From assembly GCA_012295275.1 (NCBI GenBank), contig CM022672.1:23560001-23624000 (forward strand): a stretch of 64,000 nt of DNA, given 5' to 3'. Numbering within the stretch: the first letter of the stretch is position 1; each line of letters begins with the position of its first letter. The position numbers and the translations under genes are program-made. Below are positions 11,283-64,000 of the stretch, piece by piece. The notes beneath the pieces were generated by a model, which saw only the letters and a list, made by a program, of their open reading frames with translations, searched no databases and had not been told where the DNA came from. Source of the stretch: Chrysomallon squamiferum. Lineage: Eukaryota > Animalia > Mollusca.

Positions 11283-14200
11283 GGTGACTCAGTCTTTCTA
11301 TGAAAGGTGTATTTAGCATAAAACAGAGTTATTTCCCTTAGACCACAAACTTAACAAATTGGTGGATGCGAGTGTTGTTTACAGTTAGATTAAGCTGTTA
11401 ATTATATTTATAAATAAACGGAACAGTTATCGTTTATTTCATTTTAGATAAATTAAAACAAAGTCAATTAATTAATTAATGTAGTGATTAACTGATGGCT
11501 CAATTAGTTGACAAAAAGAATGATAGGTTTTTAATGGTATAAGGGAAACAACTCTAAAATTTATTTAGAAGACTAGTTATTTATTTATTTTATTTATATA
11601 TATTAATTTCATTATTTTTTTATTTAGATATTAAAATGTTTTTTCATGTAAGTTTTGTAAAAGAAAACAATGTTTTTGCTTATAAACTGTAAAAATAAAA
11701 CCAAGATACCATGTATTATATTATAATTATTTGAATTATGCTTAAACTGAGTAAGCAGAAATAAAAACAAACATCATTAAATAAGGACATCTGCTGTATT
11801 AAATTCAATTTCAATGAATTTAAAAAGAATGGGTGAAAAATCTGTGTTATACATTTCTTATAAACTGATACACTGCTAGAGATTTTGTTGCGTTTAACAT
11901 AATTTTTTATCTTTATGCATTTTATCATTACTCAGTCTCTATATTTTCCATCTGTACACATTGAGCACAGTGTACCTCAGGGACCGGCCCTTAAAAAAAA
12001 AATGTATGCTATGTCACTTGGTGACATGTTGACTCCACGACAGTTACAATTGATGATACCTTCACAATGTTCAAAATGTTTGAGAAATCTTTTATGAAAG
12101 GAACAGAAAGTGAAAGGAATATAATGATCAAGTTTTGCGCAACTATAAAAGGTTGATTGAGTCAGGCAGTATCTAATAAGTGATGCCACAAAAATGCTGG
12201 TGAATGCACGTGTGATATCGCAACTAAACTATTGCAGTGATTACTAGAGTTTGCCCAACACCTTGCTAAATAAACTACAACATGTTCAGAATTCAGCAGC
12301 ATGCACTTGATCAGACCACTGCATCACAGTCACACACCAGCAGTGTTCAGGGAGTGCCACAATCTGCCTGTCTACTGTATCATACATATTATGGCTGAAA
12401 CAATGGTTCCATGGTGTACATTAAGCACATACTGGAAGAGTACAGGCTAGGCAGGACTATGATCACAGACCTCATTAAGGAAAGTAATACCAAGAATCAG
12501 AACATTTACATTAGCAGCAGGTGTTTCAGTTATGCCAATCTGAGTTTGTGGAGCTCACTTCCTAGCAAAATCAGGAAGAGTATGGCTACACAGCCCATGT
12601 GATCTCACATCTTCTACGAGTTTTTGTTCATACTGAGATAAGTATGGTCATCATGCTGTTGATCTGACATCACTGAACTTGAGTGAATTTTTTTGTGTGC
12701 TCTGTATGTTGTCCATGAAATAGAATGTGTGATTACCTTTTCATAAATAAATGCTGCCTATAAAATTTAAATGAAAACCAGCAAGAAAGTAATGTATTAA
12801 AAATATACATTCCTTTCTTGCTGGTTTTTACTTAAAGTTTATAGGTGCATTAAAAATGCTATACATTATTGGCATTTATTCAGATATACTAAATCTTTAA
12901 ACTATTTACTTATGTCAACAAAAGGTATTTACATGAACTCTGTAAAATGGCATTTTGTCCTTTTTTTTTTTTTCACTTTAATTTTTTTTTACTTTACATC
13001 AACTGGAAAAAAAAATTATTATAAGTGTTTTATACTTATAACAACCTTCTGGTATTGTTCCATAGTTTCAAAGAGAGATCTGGCACCCTCAGAGACATCA
13101 GATCCAAGCCCATCTATATGATTCTTCAGTTTCACCATATCCAGCTTGCTCCTGTCTGCTCGTGTTTCATGTTTCGTCAGCGTAATATGAATGTGTCTGA
13201 TTTGAAATGTGGACCTTTCACCCAAAGATAAAAACTGATCACGAAAACAAACAAAAAGTTTAAATTATAAATTTCTCTGTAAATGTATGTGAAAAAGAAA
13301 TAAAATAAAATAAAATATAATAACATCCAATAGCATTTTACTTCACATGTGATAACATATATCCAAAGAGATGTGATTCAATTTTGTCTCCTGATACTTC
13401 ATTACCATTTTTAAACTATAATTTTAGTTTGTTTAATATAGGATATTACAGAATGATGATAATTAAAAATGTCAGTGTCCAAGAAGTATGGAAAAAATAG
13501 TTAACAAACTGTCTGAGAATGATCTATCTAGAATATTCTTTATATTGTTTGTTTGATCATCACCTTTATTTTCCTTGAAGGTATAAGATTTATTACTGTT
13601 TTATTAACAAAGAAATAAATGTAAATAAACTATATGTAGATGACACACATCTTCAAGATAAATGTAAGTAAATATACATACCTTAATTTCAAGGCCAATT
13701 TTGGGATCCTTTAATTCAAATGAAGTCATATAAAAATATTTATCTTCAGCACTGTCAGAAATAAGCACACCTTTAACACTTTTTAAATACCCATCAATGT
13801 CATCATAAATCTCTATATTTTTTGCTTCACTCATAATATCTACTTTTTTGATAGCCACTTTGTGTACAGGTTTACATTTCAAATTCAGTGTACAGCTTTT
13901 AGAATTTTTCCCAGCACTAGATTCATTAAATAATTCTAATCTTCTAGAAGCATCATGTAAAGTGGACTCAACAATTCTGTAAATAAAAAGGTCATTAAAA
14001 TGAAATGTATAAAAAAAAAAATGAAATAATAAATCAATTTCTTGCATAAGGTATAAATACCAAATTGCACCATGCAGCCAGTTAACCTGAATAATAATTT
14101 ATTTTCTTCTATTTGAAAGATAAAAAAATAATAATAATAATAATAATAAACAGTTGACACCAGAACATTAAAGGCTAAAATAAATGTTATAAACTGAAGT

Positions 14201-18426: not shown

Positions 18427-19886
18427 TCAAGACGAATCCTTTGCTTTCAGACAGTCATCTAAAGGAAGAATTTTGTATCCAAACTGCTGAAATAAATACA
18501 GAACCAGCAAATCAGCATTTTCTTCGCCAATGTCAACACTAATTATCTGCGAATCGGGGATCACTGGCATTTTGGAAACATTTCGAAAATCGGCCCATCG
18601 AAGATGCGTGATATCGACTGTTTTTACTATTATATTGTAATGTCTCTCTGCTATCAGTTTTTCATAATATGTTTTATACACGTCATTTCTTACTAAGACG
18701 TTTTGAAGCAAACCATCAGATTGTTTGAATCGGTTTTCAATGGCCACCAAAATATTCCTCAACTTAAAATAGCGTTCATCATCAGTCATGTTCATTCCTG
18801 GAGGGTAAGGTTTACTTACATAGGCTCCAACATCAAGAATAGTGAATAAAGAGCTAAGTCTTCCAGGATATGATATTACAAAATCGTACGGAAGGCACAA
18901 AGTCATGGGTAGTTTATCTGGAAATGTTTTTCGAAGTTCTGCCAGGAGACTGAGTGTTTTTTGGAAAGTAAGAGACATCCGCGACGAATAGAGAATAACA
19001 GAATGATAATTTTGGTAGCGTCTCTGCATTTTCTAATTACATTACTTTGAACAGGTGGCAATTTTGGTGGATTTTGTTTGAAAAAATCGGAGTAATTTCC
19101 TCTGTCATCCCAAAAAAGCACATCCTGTGGTCTTGCACTGAATTTCTTTTTCTCGAAATTCACAATTTCTGTGTCCATAGTGGTGGTATAAAACTGATCA
19201 ATCCATTCTAGAACTTCAGTCTCCATTATCCTTTCAGTGATTGTCTTTTCTGTGTTACCGTCGACGTCTAGCTTAAGAATTATATGTTCGTCGGGATGTG
19301 TTGTAGTTTTAATCCATAAAGCTAAATCAAAAGTGGGAATTGTAACGTTTTTCTTACGATTACTAGCAAAAGTTTTCATTTCTGCCGTCATGGTTCCATT
19401 TGAAGAAGCACACGCCAGAGGGGCAAAAAGAAAATGATTGGAAAACTGTGCATAAAGAGGAGCATAAGAAACGTCAGTGATGAACGAATAAATAACGTAC
19501 TGATGCGAATTAGGATATGTATCTTGAAAGAGTTTCACAGATCTGGGTAGTGTCCCGCCGCAGTTTATGAAAATTAATCTTGGAATGTAATCTCTGAACT
19601 GAATGCTCATGTCTTTCTTTAAACTAAGGCCTGGTCTTCCATCAGATGAATCTACATGACGTCTGGCTTGTCTGTAATTCAATGGTCTGTCTACAGCTCT
19701 ATGATGAGAGAAGAGAGTATTTTTTCTTGACATGAAAGTCAAGTGAATAAAGTGTCCACAAATTATTCCCAAAATAAAAAGAATGCCCAGGCACAGGAGA
19801 CGTTTCCACTGACCAAGACCTTTAATTGGGCTCATACTGTTAAAAGACATTTGACGCGGCAATGATACTTGTCTTTTGCTTTCCAT
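18427..19886 (-). CDS. Intronless type II membrane protein: FkbM-like methyltransferase-fold region followed by a polysaccharide-deacetylase-like region; split by one frameshift near 18960-19030
   Basis: ORF 19886-18903 has an N-terminal TM helix (LLCLGILFILGIICGHF), LIFINCGG and FDLALWIK...HIILKLDVDG..E, resembling FkbM-type motifs. Overlapping ORF 19029-18427 continues in the -1 frame (LPMTLCLPYDFV...IIVKTVDI...GYKILPLDDCL). Domain calls are by eye. Confidence 0.55.
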
Positions 19887-32400: not shown

Positions 32401-35400
32401 AAAAGTTCAATGTAAACATTAAAACTCACAGATCAATTTTCTATCTTCACTTGCTAAATGTCAAACATTTCTTTTATGACACCATTAAACTAGAGCACTT
32501 AGAATAATTCTCAATGATCAGCTACTGGATGTAAACATCGATTTAATGACATTGCAAAACTAGAAAATTACAGAATGACTTTTGTCTATTAGCTTCTGTA
32601 TATAAAAAACCCCAACTATTTAATAGAATATTATATTAGATAACTGTCTATTTTTAGCTACTGGACATTTATGTTCATTCCGATATATATAGATTCCACA
32701 TCAAGCAATCTTTCTAGTTATACATTAGGTAGTTGCACAAGTTAAGCATATAATATTTTTGTGTAAGACATGCAGGTGAAGAAAACTAATAGAGGAACTA
32801 ACCTCAGTGGGTTTGGCATTTGCAAACACCAAAAATATATCTGCCAAATCGGAGCTTGAAATCCAGATCTTGTTTCCATTTAAAATGTAGCCATCTTCTT
32901 GTTTCACTGCAGCAGTCTTCATTGCAAAAGCATCAGAACCTGATTCAGATTCTGACAGACAGAAACAACTAATCTGAAGAATAAATAAAGTTAAAAACAT
33001 GGCTGTGTATTTTAGGGAATTAACCAAATAGTTTGTGAACTGCATCCAGCTGATGATAGAAATGACAACAGTTCATGCTTTATTATCCAGTAAAAAAAAA
33101 AAAAAAAAAAAAAAAAGTTAATTTATCTGCATTTGAACATAATTAAAATTACACTATTAAAAATTTGCCAGAAACTTCAAATGACAAATATAATTATGTA
33201 TTATTTTCTAATTTCTTAATACATTTTCTACCAGATTTCATCAACAGAAATTATTTAGAATTAATAGTTAATGGTGGTAATATATACAGAATTGCGTAGA
33301 CTATTACTACCAGTAAAATATCATACAGTATCAGTTGCCAGCCGAGGTAGATATTTTTCTTTTTGTTCTTTGGTTCCATATCTCATAATCAGTGCATTAT
33401 TTAGAGTGTTTTGAATGTCAACACAAATGGCAATGGATGGGTCAACTTTGGCGAGCTCCTCAATGACCAAGTTACAGACCATGAATGTGGAACCAGCACC
33501 TCCATAATCTGAGTCAATTTCTATACCAAACATCTATAAATGAATAACATTATATAAACATATAAAAAATAACTACACTGGTACAGTGAGATTTGATTAC
33601 TTTCTTTTTTTTATTATTTAAACATTATATAAACACTTAAAAATGTTGCCTTTTTTAACAAATATTTATAACTGTTAGTACATTGATGTTTGATTACACC
33701 TTGCTTCTTATTATGAAAATATTTAACACATATTAGTTTAGATGAAATTCTAATTTATGTCCATTAAATAAAAGTTCAAGCAACTCACTCCATTCTCAAA
33801 CAAAGCATTAACAACAGACTTGTCAAACTGGCCATCTTTTTCCATCTTCTGGACAAGAGGCTGGATTTTTTCTTTAGCTAGCCTGGCAACTAATAAAAAA
33901 AATACTACTAACTAAATTACAATAAAATCAAATCAAAATCAAAAGAATGAAGGTATTTTTTAATGACATTTGAGTTCATTTATATTAATACAGTGGATCC
34001 TCTATAAAATGAACATGTTGTTGACAATAAAATGTATTTGTTTTGGACAGGGATTGTGTTTATAACAGTGTTTTTATTGACAGTGGGATGAAATACAGAT
34101 CAGTGAGATTTCTGATGAAGAAAAACATGCATGGTAATGTATTCTTCTTTCTTTTTCTTTTTTTTTTAAAAAAAAAACAAAATATTTTTGTTATAGTTTT
34201 TTGGTCTTCATTTAAATTAGAGGCATTAGGCATATACTAAATTACTGTTTAAATTTGAAATATGTCAATCAAAGAGAATAGCTGACTGCAATTACAAAAT
34301 ACTTGGCAATATGAAGTGGAAATTTCCAAGGTAAATATACGGAATTGTCATTAATTTTGAAATCAGCCTCTATATTTATGTAATATTGTTTATTTAGTGA
34401 GGACAAAAAAAAAAAAAAAAAAAATATTATTTTTAAAATGACCTACATAAGCAGTGAAGAAGACTGACACTCACTAATAAGTTAAACTGATTTTAGGTTC
34501 ACAAATGTGACAAAACACACAAACACACAGACTGAGTTCAGACTTTTACCAGTTTCTTTCATCATTCGTTCATCATCTGAAAGCATATCTAGTGGCAGAT
34601 GTGAAGACAAGGTTGCTTGTTGTGTTGAGAACATTCTGCAGAGATTTGCTTTTCCAGGGAGATTTCGCAACTGACTGACAGTGCTCCACTGTAACCATGG
34701 TGATCGTGAAAACTGAAATTGAGTAACACTTCTTGAAACAAGTTAAAACATTTCTTTGGCACATTTACTTTTAAATCTTTATATATATCTCCTTACACAT
34801 GATATTTCTATTAATAATAATGCTGTGTTTGGTATGCACTGACTTAAATTTGTAACACTTTGTTTGAAATGTGCTTACCAATAATCACACTGAGGCTTTT
34901 GAGTGAAATATTTGAACAAATACACAAATACAATCATATTTGAATTAGGCATTACTATTTTCAAGAACACACTGATGTAATTCATACTGCATATACTCAA
35001 GTTATAATTGAATAATTGAACAAATATGGTACATGCAATATTATATTTAAACATGCAATGATTTCCTGTAAGTTGTTATCAGTGTTATTCAAAATGTTGC
35101 TCATAGTAATTACTTCAAATCTGGACAGGAATGCACCCGATTATGCAGTGTTGTCAGTGTATTCTGGTGGCTGATGTAGATTTAAAAATACAACAGTTAA
35201 TCTACATATCAGAAAACTAAATTTTGCTTATTTGTACATAAAAAAAAAAAATCACTGATCCATGCTTTATCTAAATTTATTTTGCACTCTGTTTTGTTAA
35301 AATGATACTGGCATTCTTTTTTCCACATCGGGACTGAATTAAATTGTTATATAAAAATATAAGCCTGGTTTATGTGAAATTATATTTTTCATATGTGTAT

Positions 35401-42433: not shown

Positions 42434-42737
42434 CTTTATAAGTCGAAATGCGATATTTTTCAAAGGGATATTAATGTCACTCTATATTTTTGTATTCCCA
42501 AAGAGCCACTAATTCTTTTTCATATTCATACATCTTAAAAACTTCAAGGCAATTAAACTTCGTACGACCCACGAAAACTCTTCACGCCTCCCTTATAAAT
42601 CGAAATTAAGAATACTATCACGACCATCTTTCCAAAATGTGATGATCTTTCAGAGCAGCCAGCTATATGACTGTCATCGTTGTCGATCAAGAAGAATCAG
42701 CTTTTCGAGAACAAAGTACACACTTTCAGCGACCACA

Positions 42738-52015
<9,278 letters not shown>

Positions 52016-52489
52016 CAAAGGAGGAATATTCCATAATTATATACCATTACAAAACTACTAATTTTCATATAAATTATACGCTATAATTATAAACTGATAA
52101 ATTTTATAATCTATATGTCGACGCATAAATACAAATTACACACAAAAATTGCACAGATATGAATATAATATTATTTTCTGTAAAATGTAAAAGACAGTAA
52201 TAACGTGAAAGTAATATAATATAATATAATTTAAAGTAAAGTAGATAATATTCATTTAGCGATACACTCAGACCGTGTTATTAAAGGTTACTAGACAAAT
52301 ATGTCTTGATAATGAGATTTTTTTTAATTCGCTTATTGACTACACGTCAAGGCCAGCAGTGACTATAAAATATACTATTCTCTGTAGACCCCTTCTTCTT
52401 AATACAGGATTTCATCTCTTCATATGTCACCCAGTTCATTACCTGCGCATACTTTTGCCAGACTGTCTGCATTCTCATTGCCAGGTATG

Positions 52490-52790
52490 AGCTGGAACCA
52501 TATTCACGCGGCTTGATTGACACTACTGTTAGGGTGTAGTGCTCCTGAAAGTGGTTTTGAAGAGCCTCATCGCTCTGTGCATGAAAACCTGATCAACATC
52601 TGTTGCATCTAAGAATCCCATTGAGGCTACCAGACTTTCAGAAGCAATCGCAGTGGAAGAACCAAGGGTGGGCTGGTCATTCTGGTTAGGAATAACATCA
52701 GTTGAAACTAACAGATTTATGGAGGCAGTTGAATGCACTGAGGTCAAGATCAAAACACTGCTATTAGAAAACACAATGAATCGTTAATAA
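52490..52790 (+). mobile_element. Degraded non-LTR retrotransposon (LINE) APE endonuclease fragment
   Basis: The + strand translates to HENLINICCI*ESH*GYQTFRSNRSGRTKGGLVILVRNNI, matching APE motifs (I..lQEth; gy...r.dr...gGGv.ilv), with in-frame stops. Confidence 0.7.
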
Positions 52791-53086
52791 CACATTTACC
52801 TCACAGAAGTCTTCTTACAGTTGCCTCTGATCAATCTGTGAAGCTGGCGAAAACTTGCTCATTGGATATACTAAGGACATCGATGCTCCCACCCATTATA
52901 TCATATACCTACCTACCTACCTGCTCTATAGTCAGTATTTATTTTAAAGAATTGTTTTAGTTCATCCAAATAAATATATTATGTGTATAATAATTAGTTT
53001 ATTATAAATAGTCCAAGATAATTGATATATGAATACATTTTATATATCACAGATTTTGTTTGAATGTTGGTCGATGTTAAAGAAGC

Positions 53087-53222: not shown

Positions 53223-53454
53223 GTCTATATGAATTTTTTGTTAATGCATTTTCATTTATTATTTCTATTTTACTGTTATTATAATTGCTAATATTCCTCA
53301 AGTTATGGAATTTTTTTTAGTTTTCCCGTCATCTTTGTATAAATGCTTATGTCTACTTTAAACTTTATAAACAAAAACAAAATCTTTATAACTGATTTAT
53401 TTTTGCCACCGCGAATATATTCTACTTGACCTATATCAGTTGTCACCTATATAC

Positions 53455-55170
53455 GTTTGGCTTCCATCACTACCAGTAGTAAAACTGATCTGACGTTCAA
53501 AGAGTTAGTTTATTTCTTCTTCACTGAGATTTTCATATTTGACAAATCTCTTGCCAAACCAAAATCCACTTGATGTATGAGTCGACGGTGTATGACTGCT
53601 GGTTCCTCCTGCTGTTAGCCCTAATGATGAACTGTAACTATGTCCATCAGTATCTACTGAACCGCCAATAGCCCCAATATGTCCCCCTGTTCCAGCTGAA
53701 AATCCGCTATTTTGACTGTACCCTACATGAAGATCAACCCCACTTCCACCAGCTCCCAGTCCAATACCAGCAGATCCCTGAAATCCAGATCCTTTGCTAT
53801 AACCAAGACTAGCAGTTCCCTGAATTCCTTCGCCAACAGAACCAGTTAAACTACCCCCGCTGAGATGTCCTGTTGGATCTGTTGTAACGGAGCCACCAAG
53901 GCTGAATCCTGGAAGAGGAACGTTAACCCCATACGTGTGGCTTCCATCACTACCAGTAGTAAAACTGATCTGACGTTCAAAGAGTTCTTTTATTTCTTCT
54001 TCACTGAGATCTTCATATTTGACAAACCTCTTGCCAAACCAAAATCCACTAGATGTATGAGTCGATGGTGTATGACTGCTGGTTCCTCCTGCTGTTAGCC
54101 CTAATGATGAACTGTAACTATGTCCATCAGTATCTATTGAACCGCCAATAGCCCCAATATGTCCCCCTGTTCCAGCTGAAAATCCGCCATTTTGACTATA
54201 CCCTACATGAAGATCAACCCCACTTCCACCAGCTCCCAACCCAATACCAGCAGATCCCTGAAATCCAGATCCTTTGCTATAACCAACACTAGCAGTTCCC
54301 TGAAGAACCCCCCCCGAACCTTTGGATCTGTGGTATACCGAGGCTGAATCCAAGGAACGTTAACCCCATACGTGTGCAGTTCCCGTTCAAAGAATTCCTT
54401 CTTCACTGAGATTTTCATATTTTACAAACCGCTTGAAACCAAAATCCACTTGATAAATGGAGTATGACTGCTGGTTCCTCCTGCTGAGATGTCCTGTTGT
54501 TCCAGAAAATCTGTTGTATCCCTGAAGCCCCGAATCTTTGCTATAACCAAGACTAGCCCCTGACCTTCACCAATAGAACCAGTTAAACTACCCCCGCTGA
54601 GATGTCTGAATCCTGGAACCACCGACGGAATCCTGGAAGAGTTAACCCCATATGTGTGACTTCCATCACTACCAGTAGTGAAACTGATCTGACGATCAAA
54701 GAGTTCTTTTATTTCGTTCATTGAGACCTTGAATTTCATCGTACGGAATAAATCTCTTACCAAACCAAAATCCGCTGCCAGAACTGGGAGTCGTGGAACT
54801 GTGACCACCTGAAAGCCCCAATGACTGAGTCAAACTGTGCCCATCAGTATCCACGGAATATCCAACTGGCCCCGTTTTGGTTCCCACACCTTCAGTAAAC
54901 CCACCATTATGGGTCCATCCAACGTGGACATCAGTGCCATATCCACCAACCCCAGTTCCAATACCAAGAGTTGCTCCAATTCCATTGTGTTTGTCGTAAC
55001 TTAGATGGGCACTTCCCTGCAGACCTTCCCCAATTGATCCTCCGATACTCCCTCCCGACAAATGCCAGTTTTTGTCTGTGGTTAAGGAGCCGTCGACGCT
55101 TCCTCCAGGAAGAGGTATATTTAATCCAAGTGTGTGACTTCCATCTGTTCCCTGGGTCCAACTGATCTGA
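53455..55170 (-). repeat. Coding tandem repeat with 480-bp period (160 codons)
   Basis: Lines beginning at 53461 and 53941 are near-identical, giving a 480-bp period; a more diverged unit lies at ~55170-54755 and internally deleted units at ~54690-54300. Confidence 0.92.
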
Positions 55171-55326
55171 CGTTCTTCTCTTTCGTCATCTAAAAAGAAT
55201 TTCCAGTCTACAGTGACTGTTTTCATTACTCAGCGGACTAATTCCAAAGGAGATTTCTTAAATAAATATAGGATATAAGTGACAATGAATTTTCTTTTGT
55301 AAATATACGTCAATATAGTTTAGAAT

Positions 55327-55369
<43 letters not shown>

Positions 55370-56622
55370 TTCTAATAAATTTGCAGTAGTATATATAAAA
55401 TTGTAATTATGTATTTTATCAAAGTTTCCAACTGTTCTTCCTTATTTATTTTTTTACATATAACTTCTGTTTTTTAAAGTTGAACATTTAAACAAAAGTC
55501 AGTATTCTCATTATCAAAAAGGCTACAAATATACCGCTTTTATTAATAGGAAGATTCTGTAACAGTTCTCTGTAACTGGGACATTTATTATTTTATATCT
55601 GTACATCACTGGTAAAGAATTAAACCATCAAAGACTGGTATATAAAGGCACTGGCATGTGGTTTCTCTGCCATGTTATCATACCAAAATAAGACAAATTT
55701 ATACACAACAATTTCTCATACAAAAATATGTCAAGATGTCAATAAAAGATTAATACAGTTATTAATTATGCTATTTATTTTTTATATGTAACAATTTCTT
55801 AAAACTTTTAATAACAATAAGAAGAGTTTAAGAAAATAAAATAATCACTGATATAAAATGCCCTTTTTACCTTTTACGCCAATTGGATTGGCGTGGACAG
55901 AGAGTAAAAGACATGTGATAAAACATATCAGAGACCTGGGGTGTATCTGTGTCAAAAGATAACAATTAAATATTAATTAATATTCATGTACTAAGATAAT
56001 GTCGGTATTTGTTTTAATTTATCGCCAGCAGAGAAGCCTTCTGTATATACGTGCATATTAATTTGAATGTATATGTTTGTATGTTTGTTGTGCACATTTT
56101 TTTTTTTAAAGTTAGTAATAATGGATGGATCTCTACATGTGTATAAAGGTATGTTTGTATGTGTATGTATGTATGTATGTATGAGTATTGTGTATGTATG
56201 TGTGTGTATGTGTTTGAGTACATACATATAACTTTCAGTGAATGTGTATGTGCGCGCATATATATTTGGTTAGGCTGGTATCTTCTCTTTTGCTAACTCA
56301 GTTTCGTACAGAGATTAATATTTAATTTTAAAATCCCCAAGTTTAAAGACTTTTGATTTTCTTTGCAATTGTTCGTTTTACCTTTTTATGTAAAACAAAC
56401 AAAATTAAAAAAACAAAAAGAAAGAAATATATTTTTTTTAAATCGGTGCCTTGTAGCCATCACATGAGAGTGTTAATTTTTATTCACACTCTGTTATCAG
56501 TTACGATTATTTTATAGTAGCACGAAATTATCTATTCTGTAGAAACTTTATTCAAATTATCATCATGATTATTATTATTATATTTTTAAAAATGTACTAA
56601 ATATAAGACCTACCAGTACCAT
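53505..56622 (-). CDS. Secreted multi-repeat prepro-peptide precursor encoding about 4 Gly/Ser-rich ~139-aa peptides ending GFWF-GKR
   Basis: Exons 56622-56614 (MVL), 55946-55871 (IHPRSLICFITCLLLSVHANPIGVK), 55666-55626, 55556-55535, then 55189-53505 (DDEREER-QISW...GFWFGKR-spacer-QISF...). Phases are consistent; the two small middle exons are less certain. The 54300-54720 stretch is scrambled by indels. Confidence 0.8.
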
Positions 56623-56731: not shown

Positions 56732-57018
56732 CTTGGCTCATTTATTTATACCTCCCAAATAAGGTGTGGAGCGTTAGATCAGATAAGAGTTTGGGGAACG
56801 AAACAGATGAAAAGATAAGTTTTGAGTTGTTTTGTTTTTTTTGTGTTTTTTTATCGTGTGAATTAACCGAATTTATACCTTGTCTAGCGTAATCTAGCTT
56901 TTAATGTTTTTGTAAATATATATTGGTTCATTATTACATTTTTGATAACACATCCGTCAAAATAATTTGAAAATAAATAAATAAATAAACATTAAAATAA
57001 AGACGTATAAAATTATGC

Positions 57019-62078: not shown

Positions 62079-64000
62079 AAAAAGAAAATAATAATAATAA
62101 TATCCTGGTTCAGTATAAATGATTGTGTTATTTACAACAAATTGTGATGATATAAACTGATTTTTAACTGTTAATGTTAAGAGCATTTCTTTTCGTCATT
62201 ACATACTTGTTTTATTAGGTTTATTTACAAAGAATATGGTATTAAACAAAAATTATTTTCTCATAAAACATTTCAAGTTTTAAAAATTATTTTTTTAATT
62301 TCAGAACCCACTTATTGCTGATATATACACTGAGCATTCCAAGGAGACAACTGTGGCCCAGTATTCACCTAGTGGTTTTTATATAGCTTCTGGAGGTATT
62401 TGTTTTCATAATTTAAAAAAATAAAAATATTTAGTTCTGGCAGGTAGTAAAAACCCATTGACACTCAAAATAACAGTATTTGATAACTTGTTTCTATTTT
62501 CTATCTCATAACATTATAATCTAAAGCATAATATAACTATTAAAAGCTAAATTAATGTTATTTAAATAAGAAAGAATAAAAATTCTTTTTAAAGATTAAA
62601 TTACATAATAACTGAATGAAATTAATTTCAATACTGTCTTGTCTCAATGTTCCAATCACCTGTTTGTATTACTATAACTCCAAATTTAATTTAACATTTA
62701 TTAGATGCAAGTGGAAAAGTTCGCATCTGGGATACAACACAGAAAGAACACATCCTGAAATATGAATATCAGCCAATTGCTGGTAAAATCAAGGACATTG
62801 CTTGGACAGAAGACAGCAAGAGACTTGTTGTTGGAGGTGAAGGACGAGAAAAGTAAGTATATTTTTACTCCTCCTCATTTTAATAGAACTTTTTTTTTTT
62901 TTCTATCAATTACTTCTGTGTAAAACCTTTCTCTCTGAACTTGTATGTATATATAAGTTTGTGTGTGTGTGTAATGCTCAGATTAATTTAATTAGAAAGA
63001 TTTTTTCTGTTTTAAAATTGAATTCATTAATGATCAACTTTGATTAGAATAAAGTTCTAAGCATAATATCCCAAAATGTATTTATTTGTGTCTTATTGAT
63101 CTATCAAGTTATTTAGAGTAGTAAAAACATTTACTGAGGTATATCCTTTATAACAAAAAAAACAAACAACTATAAGCCATAGTATTTCAATTTTAATACC
63201 TGTAAAATATCTATTTCAGATTTGGTGCAGTGTTTATGTGGGATACTGGTACTTCAGTTGGTAATATTATGGGTATGGGAAAGACCATCAACTCGGTGGA
63301 CTTCAAGCCCAACAGACCATATCGGTGTGTGACAGCTAGTGAGGATTTCTCTCTAGCATTCATGGAAGGACCACCTTTTAAATTCAAACAAAATTTAAAA
63401 GTAAGAATATGTATTTTATTTTGTAATTGGCTGAAGTAATTGTATTTTCATAACTTCTTTTTATCTAATATTTCTTAACCTTAGTTTAGAGTTTGGTCAT
63501 TCAGTGGACTGTTTAAGAGATCTTTGAGTGACTGTTTTGAATGCTGTCATGATAGTAATAAATCTGTAAAGATTATTTAACAAAGAAATTGTAAGTCTAA
63601 AACTGAATTAAAAACTACCAATATTTTTAAAGTCTGATTTTGGTGGGTTGTATTAAACATTTTTTTTTTAAATTTACTTCATTTCAAGGACTGAATGACT
63701 ATTACATGGAAATTTAAAAACTTTTATTTTACAGTTTATAATTCCATACATCTTATGTTGACATCCAGTAATAAAATTCATTTGAGACAAAAAGCATTGA
63801 ACATTTAATGATAAAGTTTTTCATACCTTCAATATTAAACTAATGATTTTTTTTTATTTTTTAGGAACATACAAATTTCGTCAATGCAGTGCGATATTCT
63901 CCAACAGGAGACAATTTTATATCGTGTGGTGCTGATGGAAAGGTATTATATTTCTTCTAGATGTTCACAATAAACAAGGAGTAAGGACATTAAAATATCA
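60614..64000 (+). CDS. WDR1: WD-repeat protein 1 / actin-interacting protein 1 (5' part; continues past right edge)
   Basis: Approximate exons 60614-60629, 61811-61933 ([39 protein letters not shown]), 62305-62395 (DIYTEHS...[11 protein letters not shown]), 62705-62852 ([18 protein letters not shown]), 63220-63400 ([13 protein letters not shown]...FMEGPPFKF), 63865-63942. Confidence 0.95.

Follow-up and report, generated by a model that had tools for sequence, protein, structure and literature searches.

Attacins, for which net charges of −3 to +10, Gly contents of 14–22% and 5–6 predicted strands per chain are given in PMC10690985 and PMC12940664, include one that is predicted to be a porin-like β-barrel oligomer and that disrupts the P. 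aeruginosa outer membrane (PMC10690985); the attacin barrel is called unconfirmed in a review that also mentions proposed non-lytic effects of attacins (PMC12940664). The hymenoptaecin precursor of the ant Camponotus floridanus contains six 97-amino acid (aa) units, each beginning with Gln, with a 4-residue EAEP spacer after RR (PMC3415428). In spiders, the acidic linkers of cytolytic peptide precursors end in Arg and carry Glu at −2 to −4 (PMC7889660), while acanthoscurrins (~10 kDa) and ctenidins are described as amidated Gly-rich haemocyte antimicrobials of ~9–10 kDa (PMC6784228). Here we describe a minus-strand gene of Chrysomallon squamiferum, located in a 64,000-nucleotide (nt) stretch of contig CM022672.1 (positions 23,560,001–23,624,000 of the forward strand; henceforth the window), which is eukaryotic DNA of ~30% G+C with introns and microsatellites. 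The gene consists of a leader, a short acidic pro-piece and then tandem Gly/Ser-rich units joined by acidic spacers. The array is a genuine gene and, with a probability of about 0.55, its product is a secreted host-defence polyprotein, the doubly capped units of which would come together as a porin-like sheet or barrel and damage bacterial membranes. By analogy, it likely represents a gastropod family that acts like insect attacin and hymenoptaecin without being a member of either.

In its layout the locus resembles the ant hymenoptaecin gene, as both have a signal and pro-piece, a divergent first unit and near-identical Gly-rich, Gln-initial units in one exon, but the units are 136–139 aa versus 97 and the spacers 18 aa versus 4, and a G-K-R amidation signal is not reported in the accessible text of that source (PMC3415428). 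Between the ant hymenoptaecin and the window units, which belong to an insect and a gastropod, respectively, no sequence or profile match was detectable. The array recalls the spider cupiennin and latarcin complex precursors in the Arg/Glu grammar of the linkers and in closing with a truncated linker and a stop codon (PMC7889660). It differs from these in that the products are acidic and 136–139 aa long rather than short and cationic, and in that the inverted motif (Arg followed by Glu within three residues) is absent from the window spacers, which open with R-F-V-K or R-F-I-P. In an earlier note, made from the letters of the window alone, neuropeptide-style processing was inferred for products far longer than neuropeptides; as a novelty, large amidated or Gln-blocked products would be overstated, since acanthoscurrins and ctenidins (PMC6784228) and the ant hymenoptaecin (PMC3415428) precede them. 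Nevertheless, the acanthoscurrins and ctenidins are cationic, with low-complexity Gly repeats, and no ordered 10-strand pattern is described for them in the available part of PMC6784228. Thus, the individual parts have precedent, while none was found in the open-access literature for the family or for the combination.

The units contain no Cys, as the earlier note had stated, and have a mass of 13.2–13.6 kDa; Gly makes up 25–26% of the window units (25–29% when the relatives described below are included), and Gly, Ser and Thr together account for about half of each unit. Their net charge is −5/−6 with 7–8 His, and it had gone unnoticed that they are acidic rather than cationic. The proposed alternation of hydrophobic and Gly/Ser residues was borne out (z ~5.6 at 170 degrees, a value reached by none of 5000 shuffles). 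Each unit is bordered by E-R/Q at its start and FWF/G-K-R at its end (slashes mark the predicted cuts), and the acidic spacers comprise 18 aa. The sites preceding Gln, EREER, ELFER and ELTER (the last one in a relative), all have Arg at −1 and Glu within −2 to −4. The combination aromatic-x-aromatic-GKR occurs three times in the six frames of the window, each time within the array.

These signals also suit a neuropeptide or hormone precursor, in which a short C-terminal aromatic amide would be the active product and the remainder a carrier. Molluscan WF-amide peptides are known, and the signal-like peptide, the repeated G-K-R sites and the starts capable of forming pyroglutamate make up a neuropeptide grammar; furthermore, basic residues in the tail of a relative from Gigantopelta aegis could free a short WW-amide. 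However, the window units contain only one and three basic residues in total, with none among the last 38 residues before F-W-F, so there are no short products with basic sites on both sides as in neuropeptide precursors. The 120-residue body of the unit, with its strict two-faced pattern, is also more conserved than the tail. A hormonal role is therefore considered very unlikely.

HMMER searches against 1.84 billion representatives revealed two clusters of relatives at an E-value of 0.001. The first is the G. aegis protein XP_041361499.1 (50% identity, E 1e-19), a true homologue from a vent peltospirid with an average G+C content of 37.22% (PMC7895826), and the second is an ENA cluster of three proteins (54% identity, E 6e-23). 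XP_041361499.1 consists of a signal-like leader, a ~90-aa acidic, His-rich pro-region ending in E-L-T-E-R, and one Gln-initial unit that ends S-W-W-G-K-R; thus, it shares both processing sites with the window gene but differs in its single unit, its long pro-region and the net charge of its unit (+10). The ENA proteins, for which an internal Met was taken as the start, close with F-L-F-G-K-R-E-E-E and a stop, and their partial units have a net charge of −3; they carry R-E-E-E, like the inverted motif of the spider precursors, whereas the window spacers do not. The amidation signal is present in all three sources, and E-R/Q in both sources where this part is visible. The processing grammar claimed earlier is consequently conserved (ELTER/Q...SWW/GKR in G. 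aegis, GFLF/GKR-EEE-stop in the ENA proteins), while unit number, pro-region and charge differ among the three sources. Across species the units keep a non-repetitive, almost indel-free register of 120 residues, and they end in aromatic-x-aromatic or aromatic-aromatic in all relatives.

Residues 20–112 of XP_041361499.1 include an internal K-R site, and their last residues resemble the window spacers (E-I/L-K/R-E-L-x-E-R). This likeness suggests, at the level of sequence, that the spacers were derived from the end of the pro-piece, duplicated together with the unit. The three ENA proteins are near-identical single-unit products, each with a stop after G-K-R-E-E-E, and it may be that the organism multiplied whole genes rather than units inside one gene. 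XP_041361499.1 is labelled "keratin, type I cytoskeletal 10-like", which was rejected because the protein lacks the Pfam Filament family and its unit is predicted to be all-β; the label reflects Gly-richness only.

The units could not be assigned to a characterized family, in agreement with the earlier note: no family was found on them in Pfam (E up to 10), none in NCBIfam, and no sequence in the PDB matched with either a unit or a profile as query (E up to 10). Porin families were likewise not detected on the units in Pfam or NCBIfam. Pfam includes attacin models; homology to attacin, diptericin or hymenoptaecin was not indicated by any Pfam family, and the two HMMER matches are not named insect antimicrobial peptides. 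A Pfam DUF7353 hit (E 0.073, in one of six members) and two weak NCBIfam rows were disregarded, and the ESM Atlas feature matches, all below 0.9, were not used. The word-seeded homologue searches returned no relatives among 3475 and 6499 candidates, but these negatives are weak, as the G. aegis protein found by HMMER was missed there. Scans of JGI metagenomes (257 pattern matches) and viruses (147) gave no relatives either. The only match in the prokaryote genomes searched, 20 residues on the strand opposite to a 1335-aa biotin carboxylase-like open reading frame (ORF), was ascribed to chance, and no sign of a bacterial origin was found among these genomes. Short unit motifs were not found in the supplements of PMC11871041 (three of four files), PMC7142155 (12 of 13) and PMC7895826 (10 of 10); since the sheet headers of PMC11871041 give accessions instead of sequences, this negative does not bear on whether the units occur in shell or scale proteomes.

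The signal peptide predicted in the earlier note corresponds to a hydrophobic stretch encoded by exon 2 (9-residue hydropathy peak of 3.06), which is covered by DNA contigs of runs X2, X5 and X8 with no differing letters. Upstream of it, the putative M-V-L micro-exon has the sole ATG with a phase-0 consensus donor in a 3-kb scan. The acceptor before 55189, from which a single long exon contains the entire array, joins in frame and yields the expected pro-region end DDEREER followed by QISW; 55207 and 55216 are the other in-frame acceptors. The predicted joins of the micro-exon and exons 2 and 3 are all in frame and have good splice signals, with zero spliced reads supporting them, and tblastn with the G. 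aegis protein found no second pro-region exon in intron 2. Within putative intron 1, the summed depth of contigs over 56322–56615 was very high in each of the four runs, with a maximum of 59,280 in X2, and marks this segment as an AT-rich repeat of high copy number.

The array comprises unit A and three B periods, in which the B-type units recur at a period of 480 nt; unit A shares 60% protein identity with the other units. The repeated Q-I-S units of ~139 aa described in the earlier note were thus found as units of 136 and 139 aa ending GFWF/GKR, although only two are intact, a third being partial, the first is divergent and the middle of the array is damaged. This damage had been overlooked, and the array does not extend to 53455 as was supposed, since a TAA stop lies at 53507–53505 and the Q-I-S-F stretch near 53455–53492 is a non-coding remnant.

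A continuous ORF through the array is absent from the window assembly. The two B-type periods at 54692–53973 are shortened from 480 nt to 320 and 400 nt, and all 34 internal gaps are deletions, accompanied by few mismatches and confined to ~400 nt between clean flanking copies. The contigs built from short reads contradict such deletions-only damage. In X2, a contig runs from 55319 to 54717 and continues into intact sequence that corresponds to the beginning of a B-type unit, which has to be a different copy as it differs from the last one in 11 letters. A contig of X8 has two extra letters at 54714, equal in size to the frameshift, and a contig of X5 spans 53458–53758 with a single differing letter (53571), so the terminal stop is kept. 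Consequently, the break at 54304–54714 is likely to have arisen as an error during assembly of a tandem array with near-identical copies, and the true number of units is likely 4–5. The depth of B-type contigs was 3.5–4.1 times that of the unique flank, which hints at about four B copies, although depth summed over contigs cannot be read as a copy number. Read contigs gave zero cover in the bin 54411–54557 (in four of four runs) and at 56763–56900, which was not counted as evidence by itself. The ant hymenoptaecin gene was likewise missed in its genome assembly owing to tandem repeats (PMC3415428).

Alternatively, the frameshifts could be real and the locus a silent, decaying pseudogene. The interrupted reading frame would fit this, and so would the thin RNA support: run X9 yielded one 285-nt contig inside unit A (depth 4.5) and none over exon 2, by which transcription of the array is weakly hinted. 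Decay is nevertheless extremely unlikely, considering that the 34 gaps are exclusively deletions within ~400 nt flanked by clean copies, that in the X2 contig unit A is followed by the intact start of a B-type unit and that the X8 contig restores two letters at the frameshift. Between unit A and unit B, synonymous divergence (dS) was 1.33 and nonsynonymous divergence (dN) 0.40, giving a dN/dS of 0.30 over 136 codons, and among the 40 read variants listed of 57, 21 fell within the coding exon, of which 11 were silent and 10 missense, with no stops. Judged by these codon comparisons, the units are under purifying selection.

The monomer structure prediction, which had been suggested earlier, returned an all-β sheet. 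With an input alignment of six rows, AlphaFold2 placed ten consecutive antiparallel strands at residues 2–119, followed by a disordered tail at 121–139. The mean predicted local distance difference test score (pLDDT) was 72 (71–85 across the blocks of residues 1–110), and 102 of 139 residues scored 70–90; a run from the single sequence gave nearly identical strands at a pLDDT of 60. In all four sequences, 31–33 hydrophobic strand residues fall on one face and 0–2 on the other, while shuffled sequences gave 10–12 and none of 5000 reached the observed value. The polar face is composed of Gly, Ser and Thr with invariant Asp80, His82 and Asp107. The predicted strands are 7–12 residues long, which is sufficient to span a membrane, and aromatics lie near strand ends at 58, 64, 77, 85 and 113.

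When the model was compared with 48,161 chains by VIA-align, where unmatched models typically reach a best Z of 7–8, the matches at or near the top of the ranking were FhaC, the best one (Z 10.9, root mean square deviation (rmsd) 3.0, 122 residues aligned), PapC (10.7, 2.3, 113) and Tom40 (9.8, 2.0, 110). According to our own reading of the titles, 47 of the 50 best ones listed were outer-membrane or organellar barrel proteins. In Foldseek the best porin reached a TMq of 0.52–0.54 and VDAC1 0.50, and the ESM Atlas model of the G. aegis protein also matched porins and ushers (TM 0.38–0.46), whereas the single-sequence model had weak fold matches only. The model shares with Omp85/FhaC, PapC, porins, Tom40 and VDAC the curved amphipathic meander, short turns and aromatic strand ends (Z 8–11 over ~120 residues). 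It differs from these membrane barrels in forming only a barrel arc, in the lack of any sequence match and in belonging to a predicted secreted, processed peptide; as identities are 4–16%, the likeness is one of shape and not of shown homology. The profile and structure searches proposed in the earlier note thus led to two clusters of relatives and barrel-like folds but to no named family. Its idea of β-hairpin-rich, membrane-active peptides stands to the extent that a 10-strand amphipathic sheet is predicted, the nearest folds of which are membrane barrels.

Taken together, the defence polyprotein could operate as follows. The leader, the E-x-x-E-R/Q sites ahead of the units, the aromatic/G-K-R sites behind them and the acidic spacers are visible in the sequence, with the sites conserved. 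By established secretory chemistry, a convertase would cut after KR and the single R, carboxypeptidase trimming would follow, and amidation by PAM together with Gln cyclization would block both ends of the units against exopeptidases, releasing ~4–5 molecules per transcript. For each unit, the predicted fold is an antiparallel meander of 10 strands, in which an aliphatic/aromatic face lies opposite a Gly/Ser/Thr face bearing a few conserved Asp and His. On its own, a sheet of this kind, hydrophobic on one side, cannot bury that side and would be expected to sit in a membrane or to join another sheet edge-to-edge. Two units could then close into a barrel of ~20 strands, comparable in size to VDAC/Tom40 or a large porin, and the amidated F-W-F tail on its flexible linker might serve as the initial membrane anchor. 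As with attacins, the target would presumably be the envelope of Gram-negative bacteria; low pH would best suit the His-rich acidic units (−5/−6, or ~+2 with His protonated), and the G. aegis unit would act at any pH. Immune-inducible expression and the killing of Gram-negative bacteria are marks of the insect peptides. The design is comparable to that of attacins and diptericins, which are also large, Cys-free, Gly-rich pre-pro-peptides with a predicted amphipathic antiparallel sheet resembling outer-membrane barrels and a wide range of charges. It departs from them in having 10 predicted strands versus 5–6, 25–29% Gly versus 14–22%, a charge of −5/−6, an array of amidation sites and no Pfam match.

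Conservation of the processing sites, but not of the pro-region, favours the defence polyprotein, as do the purifying selection on the units, the pLDDT of the model, the two-faced strands, the barrel-like fold neighbours and the analogy with attacins, ant hymenoptaecin and the spider precursors. Several points weigh against it. The net acidic window units lie slightly outside the charge range quoted for attacins and their Gly content exceeds the quoted one, and the transcription evidence is that single 285-nt contig of depth 4.5, without a spliced join and with DNA carry-over possible. The single-sequence AlphaFold2 model is weak past residue 60, three of the six alignment rows are nearly identical, Foldseek gave no row at an E-value of 0.001 (best 0.013), and any curved amphipathic meander can be expected to match barrels regardless. 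The polar face of the model is mainly Gly/Ser, as in fibrous β-sheet materials, instead of a charged lumen, and the attacin barrel used as the analogue is itself a prediction (PMC12940664).

A polar face of this composition could also fit a structural or adhesive β-sheet protein, in which units stack like face to like face into cross-β films or fibres. Mucus, periostracum, operculum, scale or egg capsule would be the sites, the spacers keeping the precursor soluble until cleavage, and polar-face His and Asp may bind metal. The Gly+Ser+Thr content of about half of the unit, the lack of Cys, the 7–8 His of the window units and the invariant Asp80-x-His82 and Asp107 agree with such a function, as do the single-layer OspA sheets among the weak Foldseek rows and the acidic charge, which suits a non-antimicrobial role. 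However, the indel-poor, non-repetitive 120-residue register is unlike that of low-complexity structural proteins, the charge of orthologues swings from −6 to +10, and the model is curved as a barrel arc. Moreover, the amidation and Gln capping predicted for every unit are typical of bioactive peptides. Thus, a structural or adhesive protein, at any of the sites named, appears unlikely.

The two free edge strands of the model and its superposition on Omp85-family barrels (FhaC, CdiB, TamA and BamA) raise another alternative, namely that the units bind the bacterial envelope without lysis. The sheet or the aromatic amide tail would bind lipopolysaccharide or augment an open barrel edge, for example at the lateral gate of BamA, slowing the growth of symbionts or colonizers with no pore of its own. 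Outer-membrane proteins carry an aromatic C-terminal signal, which the aromatic unit ends of all relatives resemble. Effects other than lysis are suggested for attacins (PMC12940664), and close relatives of the host are described as carrying gammaproteobacterial symbionts (PMC7895826). Nevertheless, the shape match is generic and ~17 disordered residues part the tail from the sheet, so that both this binding and the growth effect expected from it seem rather improbable. Returning to the membrane-damaging polyprotein, it is conceivable, albeit doubtful, that the window lineage multiplied the unit and replaced cationic charge with histidines, arriving at a pH-gated weapon that polices gammaproteobacterial symbionts or vent biofilms.

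Table 1. Features of the array gene and its surroundings, numbered by position in the window
Feature	Position	Strand	Remarks
Candidate first coding micro-exon, M-V-L	56614..56622	-	Phase-0 donor GTAGGT; inferred
Exon 2 (core of the signal peptide, beginning of the pro-piece)	55871..55946	-	Acceptor TTTTGACACAG; phase-1 donor GTAAAA
First part of exon 3, with the acidic pro-piece up to E-E-R	55170..55189	-	Acceptor before 55189
Unit A, 136 aa, Gln...G-F-W-F	54762..55169	-	First unit, divergent; net charge −6, 8 His
G-K-R amidation/cleavage signal and first acidic spacer	54693..54761	-	Frameshifted near 54714 in the window
Damaged stretch, remains of two B-type periods	54304..54714	-	Only deletions; likely assembly error
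B-type unit, intact 3′ two-thirds, ending G-F-W-F	54036..54303	-	Compared with the last unit, 8 of 88 codons are changed, 5 of them silently
G-K-R and 18-aa acidic spacer ending E-L-F-E-R	53973..54035	-	
Last B-type unit, 139 aa, 13.2 kDa	53556..53972	-	Net −5, 7 His; predicted 10-strand meander and flexible tail
Terminal G-K-R, truncated spacer and TAA	53505..53555	-	TAA at 53507-53505
Remnant of a further repeat start, beyond the stop	53442..53504	-	Non-coding; X8 contig lacks 20 letters here

Several other genes were recognized in the window. Downstream of the array, within a stretch of higher G+C (52400–52800), the minus strand is open for 84 codons (52532–52783); this frame has no Pfam match and is possibly an exon of an adjacent gene. 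On the plus strand, 42642–43118 and 44648–44995 are near-duplicate first exons of tandem SSF/SLC5 sodium:solute symporter genes (PF00474), with further exons to ~49600. The minus strand carries an acyl-CoA dehydrogenase exon (32725–33045, PF02770) and an exon of an ATPase PAAT-like gene (13604–14047, PF14958). The plus-strand exon at 63206–63436 resembles a WD40 protein of the WDR1/AIP1 type; it had no Pfam match at an E-value of 0.01. At 18427–19886, two overlapping minus-strand ORFs of 327 and 200 aa in different frames are likely one gene of ~480 aa, with the change of frame possibly due to a further indel in the assembly. The ORF at 18903–19886 had five matches among 647 candidates, the best being from Gigantopelta aegis (63%), an ENA protein (60%) and Haliotis (41%); its homologues are uncharacterized gastropod proteins of 481–523 aa with no Pfam family. 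Judged by these matches, the host is likely a gastropod related closely to G. aegis but distinct from it.

Searches of the open-access literature yielded no attacin-like Gly-rich β-sheet antimicrobial from a gastropod and no antimicrobial peptide literature naming Peltospiridae. Such genes are easily hidden, as their repeats break assemblies and RefSeq labels them "keratin-like". If the membrane-damaging polyprotein is real, it would represent an independent molluscan origin of the attacin-like design, in a group that farms Gram-negative symbionts. With its ten well-predicted strands and its natural acidic and cationic variants, the family would also offer a cleaner test case than the attacins themselves for the question of porin-like barrels in large Gly-rich antimicrobials.

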